Positions 7,112 through 50,200 of a DNA stretch of 64,000 nt are shown here, one piece after another. Each line of letters starts with the position of its first letter. Position 1 is the stretch's first letter. Source of the DNA: Clostridia bacterium (GTDB taxonomy: Bacteria; Bacillota; Clostridia; Christensenellales; UBA1242). The position numbers were made by a program, and so were the translations under genes. The notes under the pieces were generated by a model. It was not told the DNA's origin. It did not search any database and worked only from the letters and a program-made list of their open reading frames with translations. The DNA is taken from assembly GCA_045654505.1 (NCBI GenBank), contig JAZONM010000005.1, forward strand, positions 37,491 through 101,490, in the 5' to 3' direction.

Positions 7112-8165
7112 ATAAAAACTTTTCATTTTTTGTTATATTTGGGTGGGTAGGTTTTAGAGACTTGGCTTTTCTGTGATATTCCGCAAATTTTTCTTTATTG
7201 CCAATTCTATAATAAAGACAACTCAATTGGATATAGGGTATAAAGTCGTAAAAGTCTTTTTGGACAAAACCACCTTTTTCCATGTTGATGGGACAGATTG
7301 TCGAAGTGGTATACCAAAAAATCGCAGAGGAAATGTCGTTTTGGTTTTGATATATTTCGCCCAGTGCACAACATATCTCGCCATTTGGCGGAGAGAATTT
7401 CATAGAGTCAATGAGTATATTTTTCGCACTATTCAAGTCATTTTTCAAAACATAGCATTTTGATAGTGTCAGTTGTGCATCTATTATATTTGGTAGATAG
7501 CCTTTACCGTCAGTAATAAATTTATTAAATGAGCTAATTGCTTGGTCAATTTGATTATTAAAATATAGTTCGCGAGAGTAATAAAACTGCGCACGTGGGT
7601 CAAGAGTTTCGCCTTTTGCAATATGTTTTTGATAGATTTTTAGATTTCGCCCACTATCTCGTGTTGTTTCTATTTTTCTATGCTCTATTGCTATGTCAAA
7701 GTATCCGACTTTGCCTTGCAAGGCTATCGCTTCATGCACCCAGCCTCGCCATACATACCGCTTATTGTTTTTTAAAATACGCTCGCGGTAATATTCAAAA
7801 GTTGGTTGGTCATTTTCGTCAAAACCCATTTGGTATCTAAACATATATATGTCGTATTGAGGAGGGGATTTTTTTAAGTCAACAATTTTTTTTATATTCT
7901 CTTCTGTTATCACGTCGTCCGCGTCTAGCCACATAATATATTCACATGTAGCTTTAGAGAAAGAGAAGTTTCGTGCTTGTGCAAAATCATCACACCACTC
8001 AAAGTCATATATCTTGTCGGTGAATTTTGATGCAATATATTTTGTAGTATCTTTCGATCCGGTGTCTACTATTATTATCTCGTCAGCAAAGTCCTTGGCT
8101 TTAGAGAGGACGCGCTCAAGTACTTTTTCTTCATTTTTCACTATCATACAAAGACTTAGTTTCAT
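7110..8165 (-). CDS. Family 2 glycosyltransferase with C-terminal TPR repeats
   Basis: N-terminus LSLCMIVKNEEKVLERVL..IIIVDTGSKDTT..WLDADD (GT2 DxD). The C-terminal half is TPR-like (AQLTLSKCYVLKNDLNSAKNIL..ALGEIYQNQND..). RBS aaggag. Confidence 0.8.
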   Translation of the reverse strand: MKLSLCMIVKNEEKVLERVLSKAKDFADEIIIVDTGSKDTTKYIASKFTDKIYDFEWCDDFAQARNFSFSKATCEYIMWLDADDVITEENIKKIVDLKKSPPQYDIYMFRYQMGFDENDQPTFEYYRERILKNNKRYVWRGWVHEAIALQGKVGYFDIAIEHRKIETTRDSGRNLKIYQKHIAKGETLDPRAQFYYSRELYFNNQIDQAISSFNKFITDGKGYLPNIIDAQLTLSKCYVLKNDLNSAKNILIDSMKFSPPNGEICCALGEIYQNQNDISSAIFWYTTSTICPINMEKGGFVQKDFYDFIPYIQLSCLYYRIGNKEKFAEYHRKAKSLKPTHPNITKNEKFL

Positions 8166-8697
8166 TAGCGCTCCTTATCAAATACTATAAATTGTATGAT
8201 AAAGGTGTAAAATTTTGTGAAACAATTTGTATACCCAATCCCATAAAGTTTGTATTTTTCAAAACACAATGTCTCAAAATGTGGCATTTAAGAGAAATTT
8301 AGTAAAAAAATTTTTATTTAAAAAAATAAATTATTCGGAAAAAATTTATAAAAAATTATAATTATTCATTCATTATGCATAAAAGCAATAAATGGTAGTG
8401 GGACATAGTGCTCAAGACGAGTAGGTTTTATCCAAATACGACCTTTTGACAAAAAGGTAGCACTTAAAAACAAACTCCTCAATGCCTGCTTTATATTTAT
8501 AAGGATTTGTGTTTTGTCGACATTAAGAATTTTGTTCGATGGTTTTGTCTTTTTATCTTCTTGGATAAATTTTTTTTAATTTTAGAATGAATAAAGAATG
8601 CATAAATTCAAGCAAAAAAGTATAAATATTTTGTTTTGTTTGACTCAAAAATTTGTTTGACTTTAAATTTGCCTTAGTATATCCTAAAGTCAGCGAA

Positions 8698-8745
8698 ACA
8701 CAAGATATGAGGTTTTGTGAAACATTCGACCACAATATATAGTGT
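8698..8745 (+). promoter_or_regulatory. Two NrdR-box-like palindromes upstream of nrdD
   Basis: Box 2 is ccacaatatatagtgt (8730-8745), close to acaCwAtATaTwGtgt. Box 1 is acacaagatatgaggt (8698-8713) and weaker. Centre-to-centre distance is 32 bp, as is typical for tandem NrdR boxes. Confidence 0.6.
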
Positions 8746-8769
8746 TTGACTAAAGATAAGGAGTACAAT

Positions 8770-11130
8770 ATGTTTGAAAAAATTATCAAAAGAGATGGAA
8801 GAGTAGTAAACTACGACATTAGTAAAATCGAGAAGGCTATTCGCAAAGCAATGGAAAGTGTTGATGAGTCGGCAAATGCTAGCGGTGCTCTTGCAAAACT
8901 TGTAGAGGTTGAGCTTGAAAAAACATACAAGGACAATTATCCTACTGTCGAGCAAATACAAGACGTAGTCGAAAAAGTACTTATGAAAAATGAGTATGAG
9001 GCTGTTGCGAAGTCATACATTATGTATAGAAAAAATCGTGAAAATTTGCGTAATGTAAAAAGCACAATGCTAGATTACAAAGATACTGTTAATAAATATC
9101 TTAAACTTGATGACTGGAGAGTAAAAGAAAACTCTACTGTTACTTATTCAGTAGGCGGTTTGATCTTAAGCAATTCAGGTGCTATTACTGCGAATTACTG
9201 GTTGAGTGAAGTGTATGATAAAGAGATAGAACAAGCACATAGAAATTGTGATATTCATATCCATGACCTTTCAATGCTTACAGGTTATTGTGCTGGTTGG
9301 TCGCTAAAACAACTTATTAAAGAAGGACTAGGTGGAGTAACAGGAAAGATTTCTTCAACTCCTGCAAGTCACTTGTCTACACTTTGTAATCAAATGGTTA
9401 ATTTCCTAGGTATAATGCAAAATGAATGGGCAGGCGCTCAAGCATTCTCATCATTTGATACATATCTTGCACCATTTGTAAAAGTAGACAATCTATCATA
9501 TAAAGAAGTAAAACAATGTATTCAAAGTTTTATTTATGGTGTCAACACTCCATCACGCTGGGGTACTCAAGCGCCATTTACTAATATTACGCTTGACTGG
9601 GTTGTGCCAAACGATTTGGCCGAATTGAATGCGATAGTAGGCGGTGTGGAGCAAAACTTTAAATATAAAGATTGTGAAAAAGAAATGGCTATGGTAAATA
9701 AAGCCTTTATCGAACTTATGATTGAGGGTGATGCCAATGGTCGTGGTTTCCAATACCCAATCCCTACATATTCAATTACAAAAGACTTTGACTGGTCTGA
9801 TACCGAAAATAATCGTCTTCTATTTGAAATGACTGCTAAATACGGTACTCCATATTTCTCCAATTATATCAATAGTGATATGGAGCCATCAGATATTCGT
9901 AGTATGTGTTGTAGATTGCGTCTTGACTTGAGAGAGTTGAGAAAAAAATCAGGCGGATACTTCGGTTCGGGTGAGAGTACAGGTAGTGTGGGTGTTGTTA
10001 CTATCAATATGCCACGTCTTGCATATCTATCTAAGGACGAAGAAGAATTTTATCAAAGACTAGACAAAATGATGGATATCTCAGCTCGCTCACTAAAAAC
10101 AAAGAGAGAGGTTGTGTCTCAATTGCTAGAGTATGGCCTATATCCATATACAAAACGTTATCTTGGATCTTTCAATAATCACTTCTCGACAATCGGTCTT
10201 GTAGGCATGAATGAGGCTTGCTTAAATGCTAAATGGCTAGGTAAAGACCTTACACATAAAGAGTGTCAAGAGTTTACTAAAAATGTACTTAATCATATGA
10301 GAGAAAGACTTAGTGATTATCAAGAAAAGTATGGTGACCTATACAATCTTGAGGCGACTCCAGCAGAAAGTACATCTTTCCGTTTTGCAAAACACGACAA
10401 GAAAAGATATCCAGACATCATTTCTGCATCAAATAATGAAAATGTACCTTATTACACAAATAGTTCGCACTTGCCAGTAGACTTCACTTCTGATATCTTT
10501 GAGGCACTTGATATTCAAGACGAACTCCAAACCCTATATACTTCAGGTACAGTATTCCACGCATTCCTTGGTGAAAAACTTGAAAATTGGCAAACATGTA
10601 TGCAATTGGTAAGAAAGATTGCCGAAAACTACAAATTGCCATACTACACAATGTCACCTACATACTCTGTATGTCCAAAACACGGTTATTTAGCAGGTGA
10701 GCACTACACTTGTCCTGAGTGCGGAACAAAAGCTGAAGTGTATAGCCGTATTACTGGTTATTATCGACCTGTTCAAAACTGGAATGATGGTAAATCACAA
10801 GAGTTTAAGGAAAGAAAGAATTACGATATAAAGAATAGTAAATTAAAACATGAAAAATGTGAGTGTAAATGCGAAGAAAGTAAGAAAAACGAAAAAGTAG
10901 ATGCGCTTACACTATTCACTACAAAGACTTGCCCAAACTGTAAAATGGCAAAGATGTTGCTTGACAAAGCAGGTATTAAATACAATGTAATCGACGCTGA
11001 AGAAAATGCAGAGCTTACAAATAAGTTTGGTGTGAAAAAAGCACCTACATTGATTGTTCCGACTGAAGACGGTGCAAAGTATTATGACAATGCTAGTGAA
11101 ATAAAAAGATATATTGAGAGTTGTAAATAA
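8770..11130 (+). CDS. nrdD: Anaerobic (class III) ribonucleoside-triphosphate reductase with a C-terminal glutaredoxin/NrdH-like domain
   Basis: N-terminal ATP-cone (FEKIIKRDGRVVNYD). Zn ribbon CPKHG..CPECG. Glycyl-radical motif RITGYYRPV. Then a ~100-aa extension with a CPNC thioredoxin fold. Start taken at ATG 8770 (RBS aaggag) rather than TTG 8746. Confidence 0.9.
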   Translation: MFEKIIKRDGRVVNYDISKIEKAIRKAMESVDESANASGALAKLVEVELEKTYKDNYPTVEQIQDVVEKVLMKNEYEAVAKSYIMYRKNRENLRNVKSTMLDYKDTVNKYLKLDDWRVKENSTVTYSVGGLILSNSGAITANYWLSEVYDKEIEQAHRNCDIHIHDLSMLTGYCAGWSLKQLIKEGLGGVTGKISSTPASHLSTLCNQMVNFLGIMQNEWAGAQAFSSFDTYLAPFVKVDNLSYKEVKQCIQSFIYGVNTPSRWGTQAPFTNITLDWVVPNDLAELNAIVGGVEQNFKYKDCEKEMAMVNKAFIELMIEGDANGRGFQYPIPTYSITKDFDWSDTENNRLLFEMTAKYGTPYFSNYINSDMEPSDIRSMCCRLRLDLRELRKKSGGYFGSGESTGSVGVVTINMPRLAYLSKDEEEFYQRLDKMMDISARSLKTKREVVSQLLEYGLYPYTKRYLGSFNNHFSTIGLVGMNEACLNAKWLGKDLTHKECQEFTKNVLNHMRERLSDYQEKYGDLYNLEATPAESTSFRFAKHDKKRYPDIISASNNENVPYYTNSSHLPVDFTSDIFEALDIQDELQTLYTSGTVFHAFLGEKLENWQTCMQLVRKIAENYKLPYYTMSPTYSVCPKHGYLAGEHYTCPECGTKAEVYSRITGYYRPVQNWNDGKSQEFKERKNYDIKNSKLKHEKCECKCEESKKNEKVDALTLFTTKTCPNCKMAKMLLDKAGIKYNVIDAEENAELTNKFGVKKAPTLIVPTEDGAKYYDNASEIKRYIESCK

Positions 11131-11131
11131 A

Positions 11132-12043
11132 ATGTATGACATTATAATAATAGGCGGAGGTGTCGCAGGAATGACTGCGGCACTTTACGGTCTAAGAAAC
11201 AGTAAGAAAGTTATGCTAATCGAAGGTCATAGTATTGGTGGTCAAATTGCTGAAAGTCCAAAGGTAGAAAACTTTCCAAGTATAAAGAAAATTTCGGGTG
11301 AGAAATTGTCAAGCGACCTTTTCGAGCAAATAACAGACCTTGGCGTAGAATTTGAGTTTGATAATGTGGAGAGCATAAGAAAAGAAAACAATACATTCTA
11401 TGTTTCGGGTGAATTTAATACTTACGAGGGCAAATCGGTAATAATTGCGACAGGTGTAAAACATAGAAAACTTAATCTTCCAAATGAAGATAAGTATGTA
11501 GGAAAAGGTGTTTATTTCTGTGCAATATGTGACGGTCCTTTCTATGCAGGTAAAGAGGTGACTCTAATTGGTGACGGCAATACTGCATTGCAATACGCGC
11601 TTCTTCTTAGTGATATTTGTAGCAAGGTCAATTTGGTGATTATGTTTGATAAGTTTTTCGGCGATGAAGCACTTGTGAAAATCGTTGAAAAAAGAGACAA
11701 TATAAATATCATAAGAAATAGTAAAACAATCGAATTGATTGGAGATGAAAGCCTTACTGCTATAAAATTTGAGAAAAACGACAAAACAACATTCGTAATT
11801 GAGAATGAAGCGTTGTTTGTGGCAATCGGTCAAATTCCTGACAATAAACGTTTTGAAAATCTTGTCGATTTAGATAAAAATGGTTTCTTTGATGTGGACG
11901 AGAGTGCTACTACAAAGACTGAAGGTTTGTTTGTTGCAGGTGATTGTAGAAAGAAAGATGTAAGACAAGTTGCGACAGCAATTTCGGATGGCGCAAATGC
12001 TGCTACAAAAGCATGCCTTTACGTAAACAAACTAAACGTATAA
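11132..12043 (+). CDS. Thioredoxin-reductase-like flavoprotein (CAIC redox centre; NADPH-specifying HRR motif absent)
   Basis: DIIIIGGGVAGMTAA (FAD), CAICDG (11519-11530), second dinucleotide motif LIGDGNTA, C-terminal GLFVAGDC. Starts 1 nt after the nrdD stop. Confidence 0.8.
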   Translation: MYDIIIIGGGVAGMTAALYGLRNSKKVMLIEGHSIGGQIAESPKVENFPSIKKISGEKLSSDLFEQITDLGVEFEFDNVESIRKENNTFYVSGEFNTYEGKSVIIATGVKHRKLNLPNEDKYVGKGVYFCAICDGPFYAGKEVTLIGDGNTALQYALLLSDICSKVNLVIMFDKFFGDEALVKIVEKRDNINIIRNSKTIELIGDESLTAIKFEKNDKTTFVIENEALFVAIGQIPDNKRFENLVDLDKNGFFDVDESATTKTEGLFVAGDCRKKDVRQVATAISDGANAATKACLYVNKLNV

Positions 12044-12084
12044 TACAAATCAAAAAATGTTATATTTAGAATTAAGCAAAAAAT

Positions 12085-12117
12085 AAAAACTTATATCAGG
12101 CGATATAAGTTTTTTTT
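12085..12117. terminator. Bidirectional terminator between the TrxR-like gene (+) and nrdG (-)
   Basis: aaaaacttatatc / gatataagttttt 13-bp stem, loop aggc, T-run. Confidence 0.75.
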
Positions 12118-12190
12118 GTGATATTATTTATTACATTAAAGAGACAATCTTAATAAAGTCTGTATTGAATTATCTGTCCAATATTTCTGT

Positions 12191-12874
12191 CTAGTATCCG
12201 CGAAGATAAACTGCATCGACGTGATTGGAAAGGTGTTTTACAAAATCATTGGCTTTATCTTTGTTTACAGCGTGCAATCCGCTTTGGATACAACTACCGC
12301 TGTCCACAAATTTTTGCAAGTAATATCTTTTTGCGCCATCGAGTACTTGCGCCATTTTGATTATGTCTTCTTTTTTATGAAATTCGTCGATAAGGGTAGT
12401 GCGAAATTCGTAATCTATACCACACTCCTTAATATATTTTATAGACTCAAGGATTGTATCGCAGTCAGTGTCTCTGCCGGCGGTAAGTGGATATTTCTCG
12501 ATTGAGTTTTTTATATCCATTGCAATATAGTCAATAAGCTTTTCTTCCACCAGTCGTTTTATCATTTTTAGATTGGTCCCATTGGTGTCGAGTTTTACTT
12601 TGTATCCCATATTTTTTATTTTTTTTATAAAATCGGGAAGGTCGGGGTATAGAGTAGGCTCGCCACCAGACACGCATACACTGTCTAGCATATTTTTGCG
12701 CTTATCCAAATACTCAAGGACTTCACTTTCATGTATCTCGTCTTCTTCACCACTTACCAGAGAGGAGTTGTGGCAAAATGGACACGCAAAATTACAATGT
12801 CCAGCAAAAACTGTACATGTTATGTGCCCGTCCCAGTCGACAAGAGATAATTTTTGTAGTCCTAGTATTTTCAT
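12191..12874 (-). CDS. nrdG: Anaerobic ribonucleotide reductase activating protein (radical SAM)
   Basis: CNFACPFCHN cluster motif, GGEPTL. Start chosen at MKILGLQK (12874) with RBS ggagaagg, not the upstream in-frame ATG at 12916. Confidence 0.85.
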   Translation of the reverse strand: MKILGLQKLSLVDWDGHITCTVFAGHCNFACPFCHNSSLVSGEEDEIHESEVLEYLDKRKNMLDSVCVSGGEPTLYPDLPDFIKKIKNMGYKVKLDTNGTNLKMIKRLVEEKLIDYIAMDIKNSIEKYPLTAGRDTDCDTILESIKYIKECGIDYEFRTTLIDEFHKKEDIIKMAQVLDGAKRYYLQKFVDSGSCIQSGLHAVNKDKANDFVKHLSNHVDAVYLRGY

Positions 12875-12971
12875 ATCCTTCTCCACATATATTATACAAT
12901 ATATACCAATTTTCAAAAAGTGTTTTGTTTGAAAAGTTTTTGTGTTTTAAAATATGCTAAAAATGTGGTGA

Positions 12972-12999
12972 TTGACTTTGAGCGAATATCGTGTATAAT
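12972..12999 (+). promoter_or_regulatory. Sigma-A-type promoter for the 13028 gene
   Basis: TTGACT (12972-12977), 16-nt spacer, TATAAT (12994-12999). Confidence 0.55.
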
Positions 13000-13027
13000 A
13001 TTAGAGATATTAAAAAGGAGGTGTATT

Positions 13028-14134
13028 ATGGAAGATAAAAACCTAGAAGATATGACAATGGACGAAAAGGTCGAAGATTTTTATAATTACTTTAGTAATA
13101 AGAAAGAATACAACCTCCCACTTGAATTGGGTTTTGTCGTTGGACAATGGAATAATACTTACGGTGACAGAAACAAAAACGAGGATGCTGCGAACGAGTA
13201 CACAAAAACAACAAAGCTTTTAAATTATTATAGAAGTTTTGCGACAAGAGGTGAAGAAGACAACATAACAGTAATGAAAGCCTACTTGTATAGCAATGAA
13301 AATCTAAACAAACTATTTGAAAGTTCGGAAATCGACGTGAAAGATAAAAAAGTAATGTTGGTTGGTACTGGTTTGTGTCAAGCATACAATGCTATACTAA
13401 ACGGTGCAAGCGAAATTACTATATGTGATGCAAATGTAATGCTAGAACCTGCTGGAGAGTTGAAGACAGCTTTAATGTGCGTATTGAATCGTAAAGAATT
13501 TTTGGAGTTTTATAATTATGATTTTCCTGAAAATTTTTTCAAAAATCATAATGTTTATGCTAAGGTTTCACAATATCTTAGTGATGAGGCAAGGCAATTT
13601 TGGGATACTGTGGCTCTAGAAGGTGATCAAAAGATTTTAGAGGTTTTGTTTCATAGAGATTGTTGTTATCACGGTAGTAGTTTTTACAAAAAAGATTCTG
13701 AATACAATCGCTTGCAAAAACTATTATTGGCGAAAAATTTTAAAATAAATTATAAAGTGGGAAATTTTTGTGATTTTCCTACAATGCTTAATGACCAGTA
13801 TGATTTTATGTCTTTTTCCAATATTAAAGAATATTACAATAATGTAGATGATTTTTATAATGTGTTAAAAACTCTTTATGATAAAAACCTTGCATATGGT
13901 GGTGTTATGCAGACCAATTCTAGACTCTATGATTGGGATAAAATAGAAGAAGTTGAGAAATTGAATCAGCTTTTACCAAGTGCTAGAATTTTTAAAATTA
14001 AGGGAAGCGGACTTATAAGTAGAAAATTGATGAGAGATGAGAGGGATTCGCCGACAGCATGGGATTCGGTATTTGTAAAAAAGGAAAAAACCTCTACAAA
14101 ATGCGAAGAAAAAGATTGTGTACAAGGAAAATAG
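13028..14134 (+). CDS. Hypothetical protein, possibly a DUF3419/BtaA-like SAM-dependent fold
   Basis: Start at ATG 13028 behind aaaaggagg. KKVMLVGTGLCQAYNAILNGASEITICDANVMLEPAGELKTAL resembles the Rossmann/N-x-x-Q..LK signature of DUF3419. The assignment is by recollection only. Confidence 0.45.
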   Translation: MEDKNLEDMTMDEKVEDFYNYFSNKKEYNLPLELGFVVGQWNNTYGDRNKNEDAANEYTKTTKLLNYYRSFATRGEEDNITVMKAYLYSNENLNKLFESSEIDVKDKKVMLVGTGLCQAYNAILNGASEITICDANVMLEPAGELKTALMCVLNRKEFLEFYNYDFPENFFKNHNVYAKVSQYLSDEARQFWDTVALEGDQKILEVLFHRDCCYHGSSFYKKDSEYNRLQKLLLAKNFKINYKVGNFCDFPTMLNDQYDFMSFSNIKEYYNNVDDFYNVLKTLYDKNLAYGGVMQTNSRLYDWDKIEEVEKLNQLLPSARIFKIKGSGLISRKLMRDERDSPTAWDSVFVKKEKTSTKCEEKDCVQGK

Positions 14135-47200: not shown

Positions 47201-50200
47201 AATTGCAATAACTGACACTTCAGTATCTACATATTGGGGAGACAATACTTCAAATAAGCTTACACTTGAAGGTCCTTTCGCGACTTACAATTTGGGTACT
47301 TCGTCTAATATTAAAGGACTTCATATTTATAGTAGTGGAGCAAAGAAAATTTCATTAGTATGGAATAGAATTTCTTCGACAGTTGTATTTGTTGGTGAAG
47401 CTTCTCAATTCCTTACTACAAAAACAACATCTTCACCTATATATTACTCTAATTGGGGAAGAATTAAATCCTTTATGGAAAGTGGTTCTCTTATCTATGA
47501 GACTATGGACTCCAGTAAGACGGTAACTACTCCTGATTACCATACAGTGACAGATAATAGTGCAGATAGCAATTCCATTTATCAATTACGATTTGCATTT
47601 GAAGGTCAAGATGTAAGGTATTGGACAAATACTACTAATATATACTCTGACACGACCACAACAAGTATTTATCTTACTGGAATGGGAAATGATATTACCT
47701 TTACTACAGTAAGCGACGATATAAGTTTTGTATATGCTGTGTATACACCAGCCAACAACACATACAATAATATGGCTATGTGGTCATTTCAAGCTGGCGA
47801 TCATACGGTATTGGCTGGTTATAATTTGACTGATGGTAATACTAGTCTAAAAGCATATTTCGACAATTTGGATGATGTTGAATACAAAATGTATGTACCT
47901 ACATGGCATTTCATGAAAAATAGTAGTACAGCACTTACTATTGATGAAGACGATACTCCAGGTGTAGCTACTTATGCATATCGTATTACTACTATTAGCA
48001 TCAAAGATCATGGTTATGACGAAGGATATTTTGATGATTGCGTGTATAACCCTGGCGATATAAAATACGTATACTTTGATGGTAGTGCATCTATCGGAAA
48101 TCCAGGAGCATATTCAAGCAGTAGCCAAGATTATTATTTGTCTCATGGCGGTGTAAGTGGATATCAATATAATATGGAAATGCTATGTAAAGACTATGCT
48201 ATGATATCAAAGCTTACATGGACACATAAAGGTCCTCAAAGTCTGATCGGCTATGGAGAATACGATCCAGGTACAAATTTACATTTTATTGGAGTTGTTG
48301 GTGGATCTTCAAATGCTGGGTCTATTATCGTAAATAGTACCACAAACCGTATAATTCACGCGGCACCAAATGGAACAATTGGTCTAACTTCTAATTTATT
48401 AGGTTATACTTTGATTGATGCTATGGCATTTGCTTACAATCAATCGAGCATATCCCAATTAGAGTTTAGCAATGTGACCGGTATCGGAACTGGCGCGTTC
48501 TACACAGAAAACACCAATTTCTTATCGGAAAACATTATATTTGGTAAAACACTGGCTCGAATGGGTACCAATATATTCCATGACAATCGTGTTAAAAATG
48601 GAAATTCATTAAAAATCACTTTCTATGGTACAATACCATATACTACCTACAACAACACATATGGTTATGCTAAAGGTATTCCAATGTTATTTAATGCAAA
48701 CAGTACTTCAAAATTTGAGTTGTGGTACTATGCACGAAATGATAAGTCAAATGCAGGCGGGTCTTACGGATTTAGAGGCTCATATGATAAATATCTATTT
48801 AATAATGATAATACATCTGATTATTACGATAATTATCGCTTTATAGAAGCTCCTGCATCATACTTTAGTATTTCAAGCAATGCCATAAATGGTATTACTT
48901 CTACAGGTGCAACCAATTTAATAAGCACAACAAGTGGTCACTATCAATACTTAGTATTGCCAAGTAAAGATAGTAGTGGAAATACAATCACTTGGGCAAA
49001 TTATCTTGGTCTTGTAGAGACAGGTCAAGGAAATGATTATATAGACATTATAAAGATATACTACCAAGGCACACACAATATCGGAGCATTTACACAGCTT
49101 AATGGTACAACTCGTGCTGCAGATATGGGTCATCAAGTCCAATATCTCGAGACCGCTATCAATACATTTACGACGGCAAATTGCATTATGGGAGTTGAAG
49201 GTAGTCATTCTGCTATATACATTGGTTCTTCATTGACTAATTATTTATTGGGAATAAATCTACCACATATTAAGACAGTAGCTAATACTACTTCTTCTTA
49301 CTCAGGAAAATATCAAGATAAACTGACAAGTATAAATCTCCCAAATGCAACATCTATCGGAGAGTATGCCTTTATAGATTTAGATGCGCTTGTTACCGTA
49401 AACATTCCTAAAGTAACTACAATCGGCACTTATGCCTTCGAAGATTGTGGCAAACTTACTACTGTTACTGCTGAGAAACTGACTACAGTCGGCAGTAGTG
49501 CCTTCGAAGATTGTAGCAAACTTACTACTGTTGCTACAGAAAATCTGACTACAATTGGCAATTTTGCGTTCTCTGACTGTAGTGCACTTACATCTTTAGG
49601 TAATGTTACAAGTACGTCATCTACTAAAGGTGCTTCGTCTCTTGGTACATATTTTGCTGAAAATACAAAAATATCGCATGTCAATATTACTACCACAGCT
49701 ACACTTGCAGGTACAGCAGCATCTTCTGGCGTGCCTAATTCATCCGGTGCATTCCATGGTATGACATCTCTTAAGACCTTTAACACAATCGGAACTAAGA
49801 ATGGTACTTGTTATCTAGATACATTAAATAGTGGTAAGGCATTGATATATAAGACAAAGAGTCTTACTGAAAATGGGCCAGGATACTACTATCTTATTGA
49901 ATACGGACAAGGTAATACTGGCAGTGACACAATCACAATCCCAGGTGGCGTAGTATACGACGATGCATTTGAAGACAGCAAACTTACTACTTTGACACTT
50001 GGTGCTACTGATGGTGAAAACTTATTTATGGGTAATCTACCATTTGCGGGTTCTGATATCACAAGCATAATATTGAATGCTAGTCTTAGAAATGTTGGCG
50101 TTACTAATTTATATAGTCTTTATTCACAAGTATCGTCATCAGCATTCTATTCAGGTATTACAAGAAGCGAAACAGGCGGGTCTTATATATTTGACAATGC

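Follow-up and report, generated by a model that had tools for sequence, protein, structure and literature searches.

The 64,000-nt stretch of Clostridia bacterium DNA analyzed here (contig JAZONM010000005.1, positions 37,491 to 101,490; hereafter the window) encodes an anaerobic class III ribonucleotide reductase (RNR), NrdD, which is extended at its C-terminus, in the same reading frame, by a small thioredoxin-fold redoxin domain with a CPNC active site. The gene is followed immediately by that of a flavoprotein resembling thioredoxin reductase (TrxR). This NrdD-redoxin module is real, widespread and uncharacterized. The fused enzyme is probably a thiol-dependent NrdD whose active-site disulfide would be reduced by its own tethered CPNC domain, itself recharged by the co-transcribed flavoprotein from a donor other than NADPH. 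All coordinates are positions within the window, and residue numbers are those of the 794-codon open reading frame (ORF); the features are collected in Table 1.

The nrdD-redoxin ORF is an uninterrupted frame from 8746 to 11130 on the forward strand (794 codons, TAA at 11128-11130). The true start is most likely ATG 8770 rather than the listed TTG 8746, since an AAGGAG sequence at 8758-8763 precedes this ATG and homologues begin at the equivalent position; the predicted product is thus 786 aa long. In this frame follow one another an ATP-cone (Pfam span, residues 12-99), the NrdD core (NRDD, residues 128-693, E = 7e-195), a Cys/Glu-rich linker of ~20 residues and a 77-residue thioredoxin-fold domain carrying CPNC (Glutaredoxin, residues 722-771). 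The core is identified as a class III RNR by its catalytic-domain scores (649.4 bits for PF13597, cut-off 26.2; 1143.8 bits for NF006126, cut-off 548; 542.3 bits for TIGR02487, cut-off 326), by a glycyl-radical motif of the RxxGY type together with a Zn ribbon, and by the accompanying NrdG activase. An earlier note, made from the sequence alone, had drawn attention to the glycyl-radical motif RITGYYRP, to an NWNDGK..E tail beyond which the frame continues, to a Cys-rich linker, to the CPNC active site, to a KKAPTLIV cis-Pro element and to SMCCRLRLD in the thiyl-loop region, and all of them are present, at the positions given there: the glycyl radical falls on Gly671, the linker reads KLKHEKCECKCEESKKNEK (residues 699-717), the CPNC cysteines are C729 and C732, and the cis-proline is P767.

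To assess the spread of the fusion, we used residues 696-794 as query and restricted the search to proteins of NrdD length. The redoxin tail was observed on at least 1872 such protein clusters from many assemblies and sources; the best 120 of these at least 1872 clusters all have PF00462 and PF13597, and PF03477 is found in all but three truncated ones. In a scan of GTDB species representatives, the genomes of at least 586 species have the fusion; most are Christensenellales-like or belong to other Clostridia, and Bacilli/Erysipelotrichales-type metagenome-assembled genomes (MAGs) from gut and rumen are represented as well. Among 200 genomes sampled evenly from the class, ~39 have the fused form (63-78% identity, with the alignment reaching residue ~784 of 786), and ~35 have an unfused sister form (48-55% identity) whose operon consists of nrdD and nrdG only, neither a redoxin nor a reductase gene lying close by. 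A frameshift, a misassembly or a read-through of two genes could in principle simulate a fusion, and a split arrangement does exist at locus L090, where nrdG and nrdD (712 aa) are followed by a free 79-aa redoxin ORF overlapping the nrdD end by 38 nt. The frame in the window is continuous, however, and the same tail recurs on the at least 1872 NrdD-length clusters, in ~39 genomes out of the 200 sampled and in one phage record, which rules out a gene-call or assembly artifact; we leave this explanation next to no probability.

Free-standing redoxin homologues of 73-79 aa share the TKTCPNCK...QAPTL signature; they lie on contigs of 501-907 nt, L090 being the sole locus informative on gene context. 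A search of protein representatives returned mostly short fragments and free redoxins, and there the full-length fusions collapse into few 50%-identity clusters. We also observed variant arrangements. The phage record (MT835493.1, 57 kb, unannotated, from human feces) encodes, at 47419-48012, an NrdD C-terminus with linker and redoxin (58% identity over 186 aa). The metagenomic protein P0133 (309 aa) contains the redoxin domain twice, with many DACDGTRILGTAKAEP-like repeats before and between the two copies. In P0122 (metagenomic, 128 aa), a TrxR-like N-terminal FAD motif is joined directly to the redoxin, either by a deletion or chimeric assembly or as a natural mini-fusion.

NrdD subtypes are distinguished by active-site residues. 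In the classification of Wei et al., as relayed in PMC4493059, a third active-site Cys together with a Glu marks NrdD2, the Cys without the Glu marks NrdD3, and the formate-dependent NrdD1 (E. coli, T4, L. lactis) has neither; the NrdD2 definition is also drawn from PMC4390871. We aligned the fusion core with HMMER to the Thermotoga maritima enzyme TmNrdD (4COI). Y181-C182 falls on Y124-C125, and C388-C389, within SMCCRLRLD (residues 386-394), falls on C329-C330 of the SCCR motif. E536, in NLEATPAE, aligns with E495 of T. maritima, whose Neisseria bacilliformis counterpart is E438. The fusion core thus has a third Cys beside the thiyl Cys as well as the active-site Glu. Because YC182, C388-C389 and E536 match the T. 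maritima enzyme, whereas G-C and Leu stand at the corresponding positions of the formate-dependent enzyme from Prevotella copri (8P23), the core is, by its residues, of the thiol type (NrdD2) and not of the formate type, which settles a point that the earlier note had left between the two. Likewise, NrdD1-type relatives in the host family have CMGCRS, YGTPIES and NC where the fusion core has CC, E and YC. From these residues, we infer that the fused enzyme is thiol-dependent.

Among 117 full-length relatives, no substitution is seen at C182, C388, C389, E536, G671 or the residues of the Zn ribbon, and TKTCPNCKMAK and KKAPTLxVP are likewise invariant (117/117), which speaks for purifying selection on the redox site. 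The earlier note had named two outcomes that would refute its proposal, a tail matching no thioredoxin-fold model, and formate-type catalytic residues with CPNC not conserved in orthologues; neither is seen. The unfused sister form retains YC, SMCCRLR and NLEATPAE. Since this sister clade carries the thiol-type residues, the fusion arose inside an already thiol-type lineage, as is expected if the appended domain is the reductant. The split form at L090 adds to this Rosetta-stone argument.

The gene content of the genome bears on the same question. The assembly (1.01 Mb, 34% GC, 93.9% complete) has exactly one NrdD, and neither a class I or II RNR nor a gene resembling pyruvate formate-lyase (PFL) was found in it, making the fusion its only RNR. 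Were the enzyme formate-dependent, the redoxin would have an accessory part, as a redox or oxygen sensor, or would be a general disulfide reductase fused by chance; uptake of formate from the gut environment is conceivable, and PFL could be absent from the 93.9% complete assembly only. We nevertheless consider this very improbable. In the core, CC, Glu and YC stand in place of the (M)GC, Gly/Leu and NC of formate-type enzymes; general duties could fall to the separate canonical thioredoxin and the second TrxR of the genome; and members of the family with a formate-type NrdD have PFL, whereas those with the fused form do not.

The latter comparison covers eight genomes of the host family and order. 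PFL was not found in four fused-form genomes (G000, G113, G168 and G009, of which G113 and G168 belong to the family of G000), nor in G083, which has an unfused thiol-type NrdD (YC, SSCCRL, NVEAIPAES), whereas the two same-family genomes with a distant NrdD1-type NrdD (NC, CMGCRS, YGTPIES) both have PFL. G195 is mixed: besides an NrdD of the unfused sister clade, it has another, weak NrdD match as well as three PFL-like genes. On this small scale, the gene content shows the same association of NrdD subtype with formate metabolism that underlay the NrdD2 concept (PMC4390871). We also observed that the sole RNR differs within one family of 0.8-1.0 Mb genomes (G050, G141 and G083 versus G000, G113 and G168; loci L112-L114). 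The alternation within this family of formate-type NrdD with PFL and thiol-type NrdD without PFL looks like the horizontal replacement of a whole dNTP-reduction strategy.

We then compared the redoxin tail with thioredoxin-fold models, and it matches them. Pfam Glutaredoxin (PF00462) is detected on the last 100 residues (E = 5.8e-11, 42.9 bits, cut-off 22.9) and Pfam Thioredoxin (PF00085) on the tail at 27.8 bits (cut-off 23.5). Modeled by AlphaFold2, the last 80 residues have the topology beta-alpha-beta-alpha-beta-beta-alpha at a mean predicted local distance difference test score (pLDDT) of 93.4, and Foldseek retrieves with this model thioredoxins, KaiB in its thioredoxin-like form and NrdH, with TM scores of 0.65-0.76. 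A profile of the tail run against PDB sequences finds glutaredoxin, glutaredoxin-like proteins of the protein disulfide oxidoreductase (PDO) type, MJ0307-type thioredoxin and NrdH (E = 1e-8 to 1e-5).

The subfamily to which the tail belongs was examined with diagnostic motifs and equivalog models. Canonical thioredoxins have a WCGPC active site, a five-strand fold of ~105 aa and an IPT cis-Pro loop; glutaredoxins bind glutathione (GSH) through a TVP cis-Pro loop and a GG..D motif; NrdH-redoxins carry CVQC and WSGFRP. The tail is not an NrdH, with 29.0 bits for TIGR02194 (cut-off 85.75), a CPNC active site and no WSGFRP-like motif. It has the CxxC of the Pfam glutaredoxin family, but its cis-Pro loop is APT, resembling the IPT of thioredoxins, and the last helix (YYDNASEI) is not preceded by a GG motif, so that a classical glutaredoxin was rejected as well; the Grx3 equivalog TIGR02181 scores 30.9 (cut-off 90), and all NCBIfam glutaredoxin equivalogs are far under their cut-offs. 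Nor is it a canonical thioredoxin (TIGR01068, 20.9 versus 96.8), being a 77-aa four-strand fold without WCGPC. No single subfamily label fits, as glutaredoxin, PDO, MJ0307-type thioredoxin, NrdH and KaiB are all about equally distant in the profile and Foldseek comparisons. Of the earlier description of the tail as glutaredoxin/NrdH-like, the thioredoxin fold with CPNC stands and the assignment to classical glutaredoxins or NrdH falls. By these comparisons, the tail is a minimal thioredoxin-fold redoxin outside both families, and it would work in a thioredoxin/NrdH-like manner, drawing its electrons from a disulfide reductase of the flavoprotein type. Neither a GshA/GshF-type ligase nor any glutaredoxin-type domain besides the fusion tail was found in the genome.

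A downstream reductase gene had been reported in the earlier note, and it is real: a TrxR-like gene lies directly downstream of the fusion in 78 of 80 loci, with a gap of 5-100 nt, the remaining two loci being at a contig edge. The protein has the FAD motif GxGxxG (GGGVAG) and the redox CxxC (CAIC) of NADPH-dependent thioredoxin reductases (NTRs), and CAxC is invariant in 76/76 syntenic homologues. It differs from the NADPH-dependent 4ZN0 and 5MH4 in the pyridine nucleotide region: HRRD is replaced by IMFD (T-L-F-D in the consensus), which leaves no arginines of the HRRxxxR motif, and GGGNSA by GDGNTA, a second Rossmann motif that reads GDANTA in 53 of the 76 homologues. The replacement motif (T/I)(L/M)FD(K/R)FF(G/A)D is itself conserved in ~71/76. 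By the criteria used for clostridial enzymes (PMC10880999), the sequence is that of a non-NTR. Its overall similarity is nonetheless greater to NTR structures (E = 5e-56) than to the structures 6GNC, 6GNA and 6GND of flavin thioredoxin reductases that depend on ferredoxin (FFTRs; E = 1e-34 to 7e-31).

As the HRRxxxR motif is lost, NADPH is an improbable donor, and the flavoprotein probably takes its electrons from another one. The genome has a pyruvate:ferredoxin oxidoreductase, which shows only that reduced ferredoxin is available; ferredoxin reduced by this enzyme is put forward as a candidate only. A second TrxR-like gene, outside the window (contig C6:4544-5428), scores 330.5 bits for TIGR01292, under the cut-off, and has HRR replaced, reading LINKDDRIKC, which suggests NADH, or some other donor, for its product. 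It may be that no NADPH-type thioredoxin reductase exists in this 1 Mb genome, which has one separate canonical WCGPC thioredoxin. The earlier note had spoken of a self-contained thiol-based pathway. With the reductase devoid of HRRxxxR, this wording holds for no more than the thiol part of that chain.

Taken together, architecture, residue signature, conservation, synteny and gene content lead us to infer an electron path from the flavoprotein via CPNC to the active site. Each turnover would oxidize two active-site cysteines, C182 from a barrel strand and either C388 or C389 from the finger loop, with E536 acting as the base that formate-type enzymes lack. The CPNC domain, on a disordered tether of ~40 residues that would leave the barrel just past the glycyl-radical loop, would re-reduce this disulfide, either within the same subunit or across the dimer in the other one, and the CxxC/FAD flavoprotein, whose gene starts 1 nt downstream, would in turn recharge the oxidized CPNC. 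NrdG would install the glycyl radical, and the ATP-cone and the probable NrdR box would give the usual allosteric and transcriptional control.

Several points weigh against this path. The flavoprotein scores 296.7 bits for TIGR01292, under the cut-off of 343.45, and the fused or split relatives L106, L107 and L090 have no adjacent TrxR-like gene, so that, from these loci, the flavoprotein is not obligatory for a redoxin-linked NrdD. The full-length AlphaFold2 model, built on a 68-sequence alignment, is poor (mean pLDDT 66.9, predicted TM score 0.57, active-site loops and linker <50); docking of the redoxin on the core is not seen in it, and it was used for domain boundaries and linker disorder only. 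Thiol dependence is demonstrated, as cited in PMC4493059 and PMC4390871, solely for the distantly related N. bacilliformis enzyme. Class I and II enzymes need a shuttle cysteine pair, according to PMC4390871, and for a folded redoxin to reach a disulfide inside the barrel is a difficulty. Finally, the absences noted in the genome, that of PFL among them, are not absolute since the assembly is 93.9% complete.

The redoxin could alternatively serve activation or maintenance, keeping the Zn ribbon, the cysteines of the glycyl-radical domain or surface thiols reduced for NrdG, with turnover electrons coming from elsewhere. Thioredoxin does likewise for E. coli NrdD (PMC4390871), the tether begins ~25 residues past the glycyl-radical loop, beside the Zn ribbon C643/H646/C656/C659 that provides the nearest cysteines, and the unfused sister clade copes without a dedicated redoxin gene nearby. 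Yet a core with the full NrdD2 set of third Cys and Glu needs a dithiol reductant anyway, no PFL that could supply formate was found in the genome, and a stoichiometric fused redoxin with a private reductase seems excessive for occasional repair. We therefore regard a role confined to activation or maintenance as unlikely. Note that this role and delivery of the turnover electrons by the CPNC domain, which we prefer, are not mutually exclusive.

The linker between core and redoxin may add a step to this delivery. Residues 674-715 are disordered in the full-length model (pLDDT <50), and the linker sequence is highly variable across the 117 full-length relatives. Its cysteine content is high: Cys makes up 11.6% of the variable ~20-residue stretch versus 1.8% of the remaining protein, and 104 of 147 distinct linkers have a close Cys pair (CxC, CC or similar), with 31/147 having one Cys and 12/147 none. 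No Cys was found in the linkers of the divergent fused lineages L105-L107 and P0220, and no tail cysteines in the unfused sister clade. In these sequences, the enrichment is real and the cysteines are not obligatory.

Class III RNRs are said (PMC4390871) to be without the external pair of C-terminal cysteines by which electrons are shuttled in the RNRs of classes I and II. The linker pair could conceivably be the class III counterpart of this shuttle dithiol, the peptide entering the active site to reduce the C182/C388-389 disulfide and being re-reduced by CPNC; electrons may then run from a non-NADPH donor, possibly ferredoxin, through the FAD/CxxC flavoprotein, CPNC and the linker CxC to the active site. 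If true, the shuttle would have been reinvented independently, given the reported lack of such a pair in this class. We hold this to be doubtful, as 8% of the linkers are Cys-free and 21% have one Cys, and as the Cys-free linkers of L105-L107 and P0220 and the sister clade without tail cysteines count against it as well. A separate peculiarity was observed in P0266 (metagenomic, 1314 aa, fused clade), which has two large insertions with intein and HNH-endonuclease hallmarks and a CxxC (SCEACS) in its linker.

Table 1. Coordinates of the NrdD-redoxin module and of associated features in the 64-kb window.
Feature	Position	Strand	Basis
nrdD-redoxin fusion gene	8770..11130	+	NF006126, PF13597; ORF open from TTG 8746
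ATP-cone allosteric domain (residues 12-99)	8779..9042	+	PF03477, E 5.5e-23
Class III RNR catalytic core (residues 128-693)	9127..10824	+	Alignment to TmNrdD 4COI and P. copri 8P23
C182	9289-9291	+	Core key residue
C388-C389	9907-9912	+	Core key residues
E536	10351-10353	+	Core key residue
Zn ribbon C643/H646/C656/C659	10672-10722	+	C643-x2-H646-x9-C656-x2-C659
Glycyl-radical G671	10756-10758	+	RITGYY motif (RxxGY type), Zn ribbon before it
Flexible acidic Cys-rich linker (residues 696-717)	10831..10896	+	Low pLDDT, Cys enrichment
Linker C705, C707, C709 (CxCxC)	10858-10872	+	Sequence
Thioredoxin-fold (glutaredoxin-like) redoxin domain (residues 718-794)	10897..11127	+	PF00462, AlphaFold2, Foldseek
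CPNC active site C729/C732	10930-10941	+	Sequence
cis-Pro loop KKAPTL, P767	11044-11046	+	Sequence
TrxR-like FAD flavoprotein, 303 aa	11132..12043	+	ATG 1 nt after nrdD stop; TIGR01292
CAIC redox motif	11519-11530	+	Sequence
GDGNTA	11570-11587	+	Sequence
Segment replacing HRRxxxR, VNLVIMFDKFFGD	11627-11665	+	Alignment to NTRs
nrdG, radical-SAM activase of NrdD; probable start ATG 12874	12191..12874	-	TIGR02495 NrdG2, 214.8 bits, cut-off 131
Candidate NrdR box CACAATATATAGTG, 26 nt upstream of nrdD start codon	8731..8744	+	Consensus match

Around the module, nrdG is convergent with the nrdD-flavoprotein operon in the window and lies close to the fusion in most of the 80 loci; a simple terminator scan found no terminator between the convergent flavoprotein gene and nrdG. 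Upstream of nrdD, CACAATATATAGTG is the sole zero-mismatch match in the window to the NrdR-box consensus, which we take to be CACWATATATWGTG. A weaker NrdR-box-like site was seen by eye near 8699-8712 (10/14 match), 32 bp upstream of CACAATATATAGTG, and the genome has an NrdR gene (TIGR00244, 197.8 bits), so that a NrdR box before nrdD is probable. The intergenic region in which these sites lie (8166-8769) is unusually long (~600 nt), AT-rich and without an ORF of note; an Rfam search of 8000-13200 gave no match, and thus no riboswitch in the 600-nt nrdD leader. Beyond the nrdG region, an ORF on the forward strand (13025-14134) has only a sub-threshold match to DUF3419 (27.0 bits versus 28.2).

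Literature searches found no characterization of NrdD-redoxin fusions, and the source databases label the proteins merely 'ribonucleoside triphosphate reductase', an annotation gap in that these names omit the redoxin tail. Among thiol-dependent class III enzymes, the single one shown to use thioredoxin is that of N. bacilliformis, with a heterologous partner. The module could offer a ready-made model for electron delivery to thiol-dependent class III RNRs, in which covalent attachment points to the physiological redoxin and the shared operon to its reductase. It appears to be the sole dNTP route in this 1 Mb genome and, as it occurs by the hundreds in uncultured Clostridia and Bacilli of gut and rumen, it would support DNA synthesis across a considerable share of the anaerobic gut microbiota. 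A flavoprotein devoid of the NADPH motif further hints that dNTP synthesis may depend on ferredoxin or another low-potential donor and not on NADPH.

The nearest biochemical relatives are the NrdD2 enzymes, known from N. bacilliformis biochemistry and the T. maritima structures 4COI/4U3E (Wei et al., 2014, as described in PMC4493059 and PMC4390871), which share with the fusion the glycyl radical, the Zn ribbon, the NrdG activase, Y-C, the adjacent CC and the Glu. Their organisms and the fusion host are alike in having no formate source, as far as PFL was not found in the host. Overall similarity of the fusion core to TmNrdD is low (E = 2e-41), and the core belongs to the NrdDd-type group rather than NrdDh, going by the 2018 RNRdb assignment of a like fusion. 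Characterized NrdD2 enzymes use thioredoxin in trans from the housekeeping NADPH system, whereas the fusion has a tethered redoxin and a private reductase without the NADPH motif.

That like fusion, a Glutaredoxin:NrdD protein (WP_082039398.1) assigned to subclass NrdDd, comes from Lachnospiraceae bacterium TWA4 and appears in Table S1 of the RefSeq survey of glutaredoxin-RNR fusions by Rozman Grinberg et al. (2018; PMC6187632). By its domain listing, it has the same combination of glutaredoxin and NrdD; it is a single, unstudied instance there, and the source gives neither a downstream flavoprotein nor a Cys-rich linker, an NrdD2 signature or the spread over at least 586 species. In the Grx::ATP-cone::NrdB protein of Facklamia ignava (PMC6187632), a redoxin is likewise fused to an RNR component and is, experimentally, the physiological reductant of its own holoenzyme. 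The F. ignava system is of class I, with the glutaredoxin N-terminal on the radical-generating subunit, depends on GSH and acts on the C-terminal shuttle cysteines of NrdA. The present genome, in which no GshA/GshF-type ligase was found, differs in this respect, and the tail is without GSH-binding motifs.

In Methanosarcina barkeri, NrdD3 is reportedly encoded together with its own small redoxin and its own reductase, one that works without pyridine nucleotides, as separate polypeptides, the reductase being said to be an Fe-S enzyme of the ferredoxin:thioredoxin reductase type and not a flavoprotein. These partners are named as an NrdH-like redoxin and a ferredoxin:disulfide reductase (Wei et al., 2015, cited in PMC5704485), and NrdD3 lacks the Glu that the fused enzyme has (PMC4493059). 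The FFTRs of Clostridium (6GNA-6GND) and Gloeobacter (5J60) resemble the fusion-linked flavoprotein in having the TrxR fold, FAD and CxxC and in lacking HRRxxxR (PMC8154056, PMC10880999). The flavoprotein differs from them in being closer to NADPH-TrxRs than to the solved FFTRs, and in carrying a conserved replacement motif of its own, LFDKFFGD.

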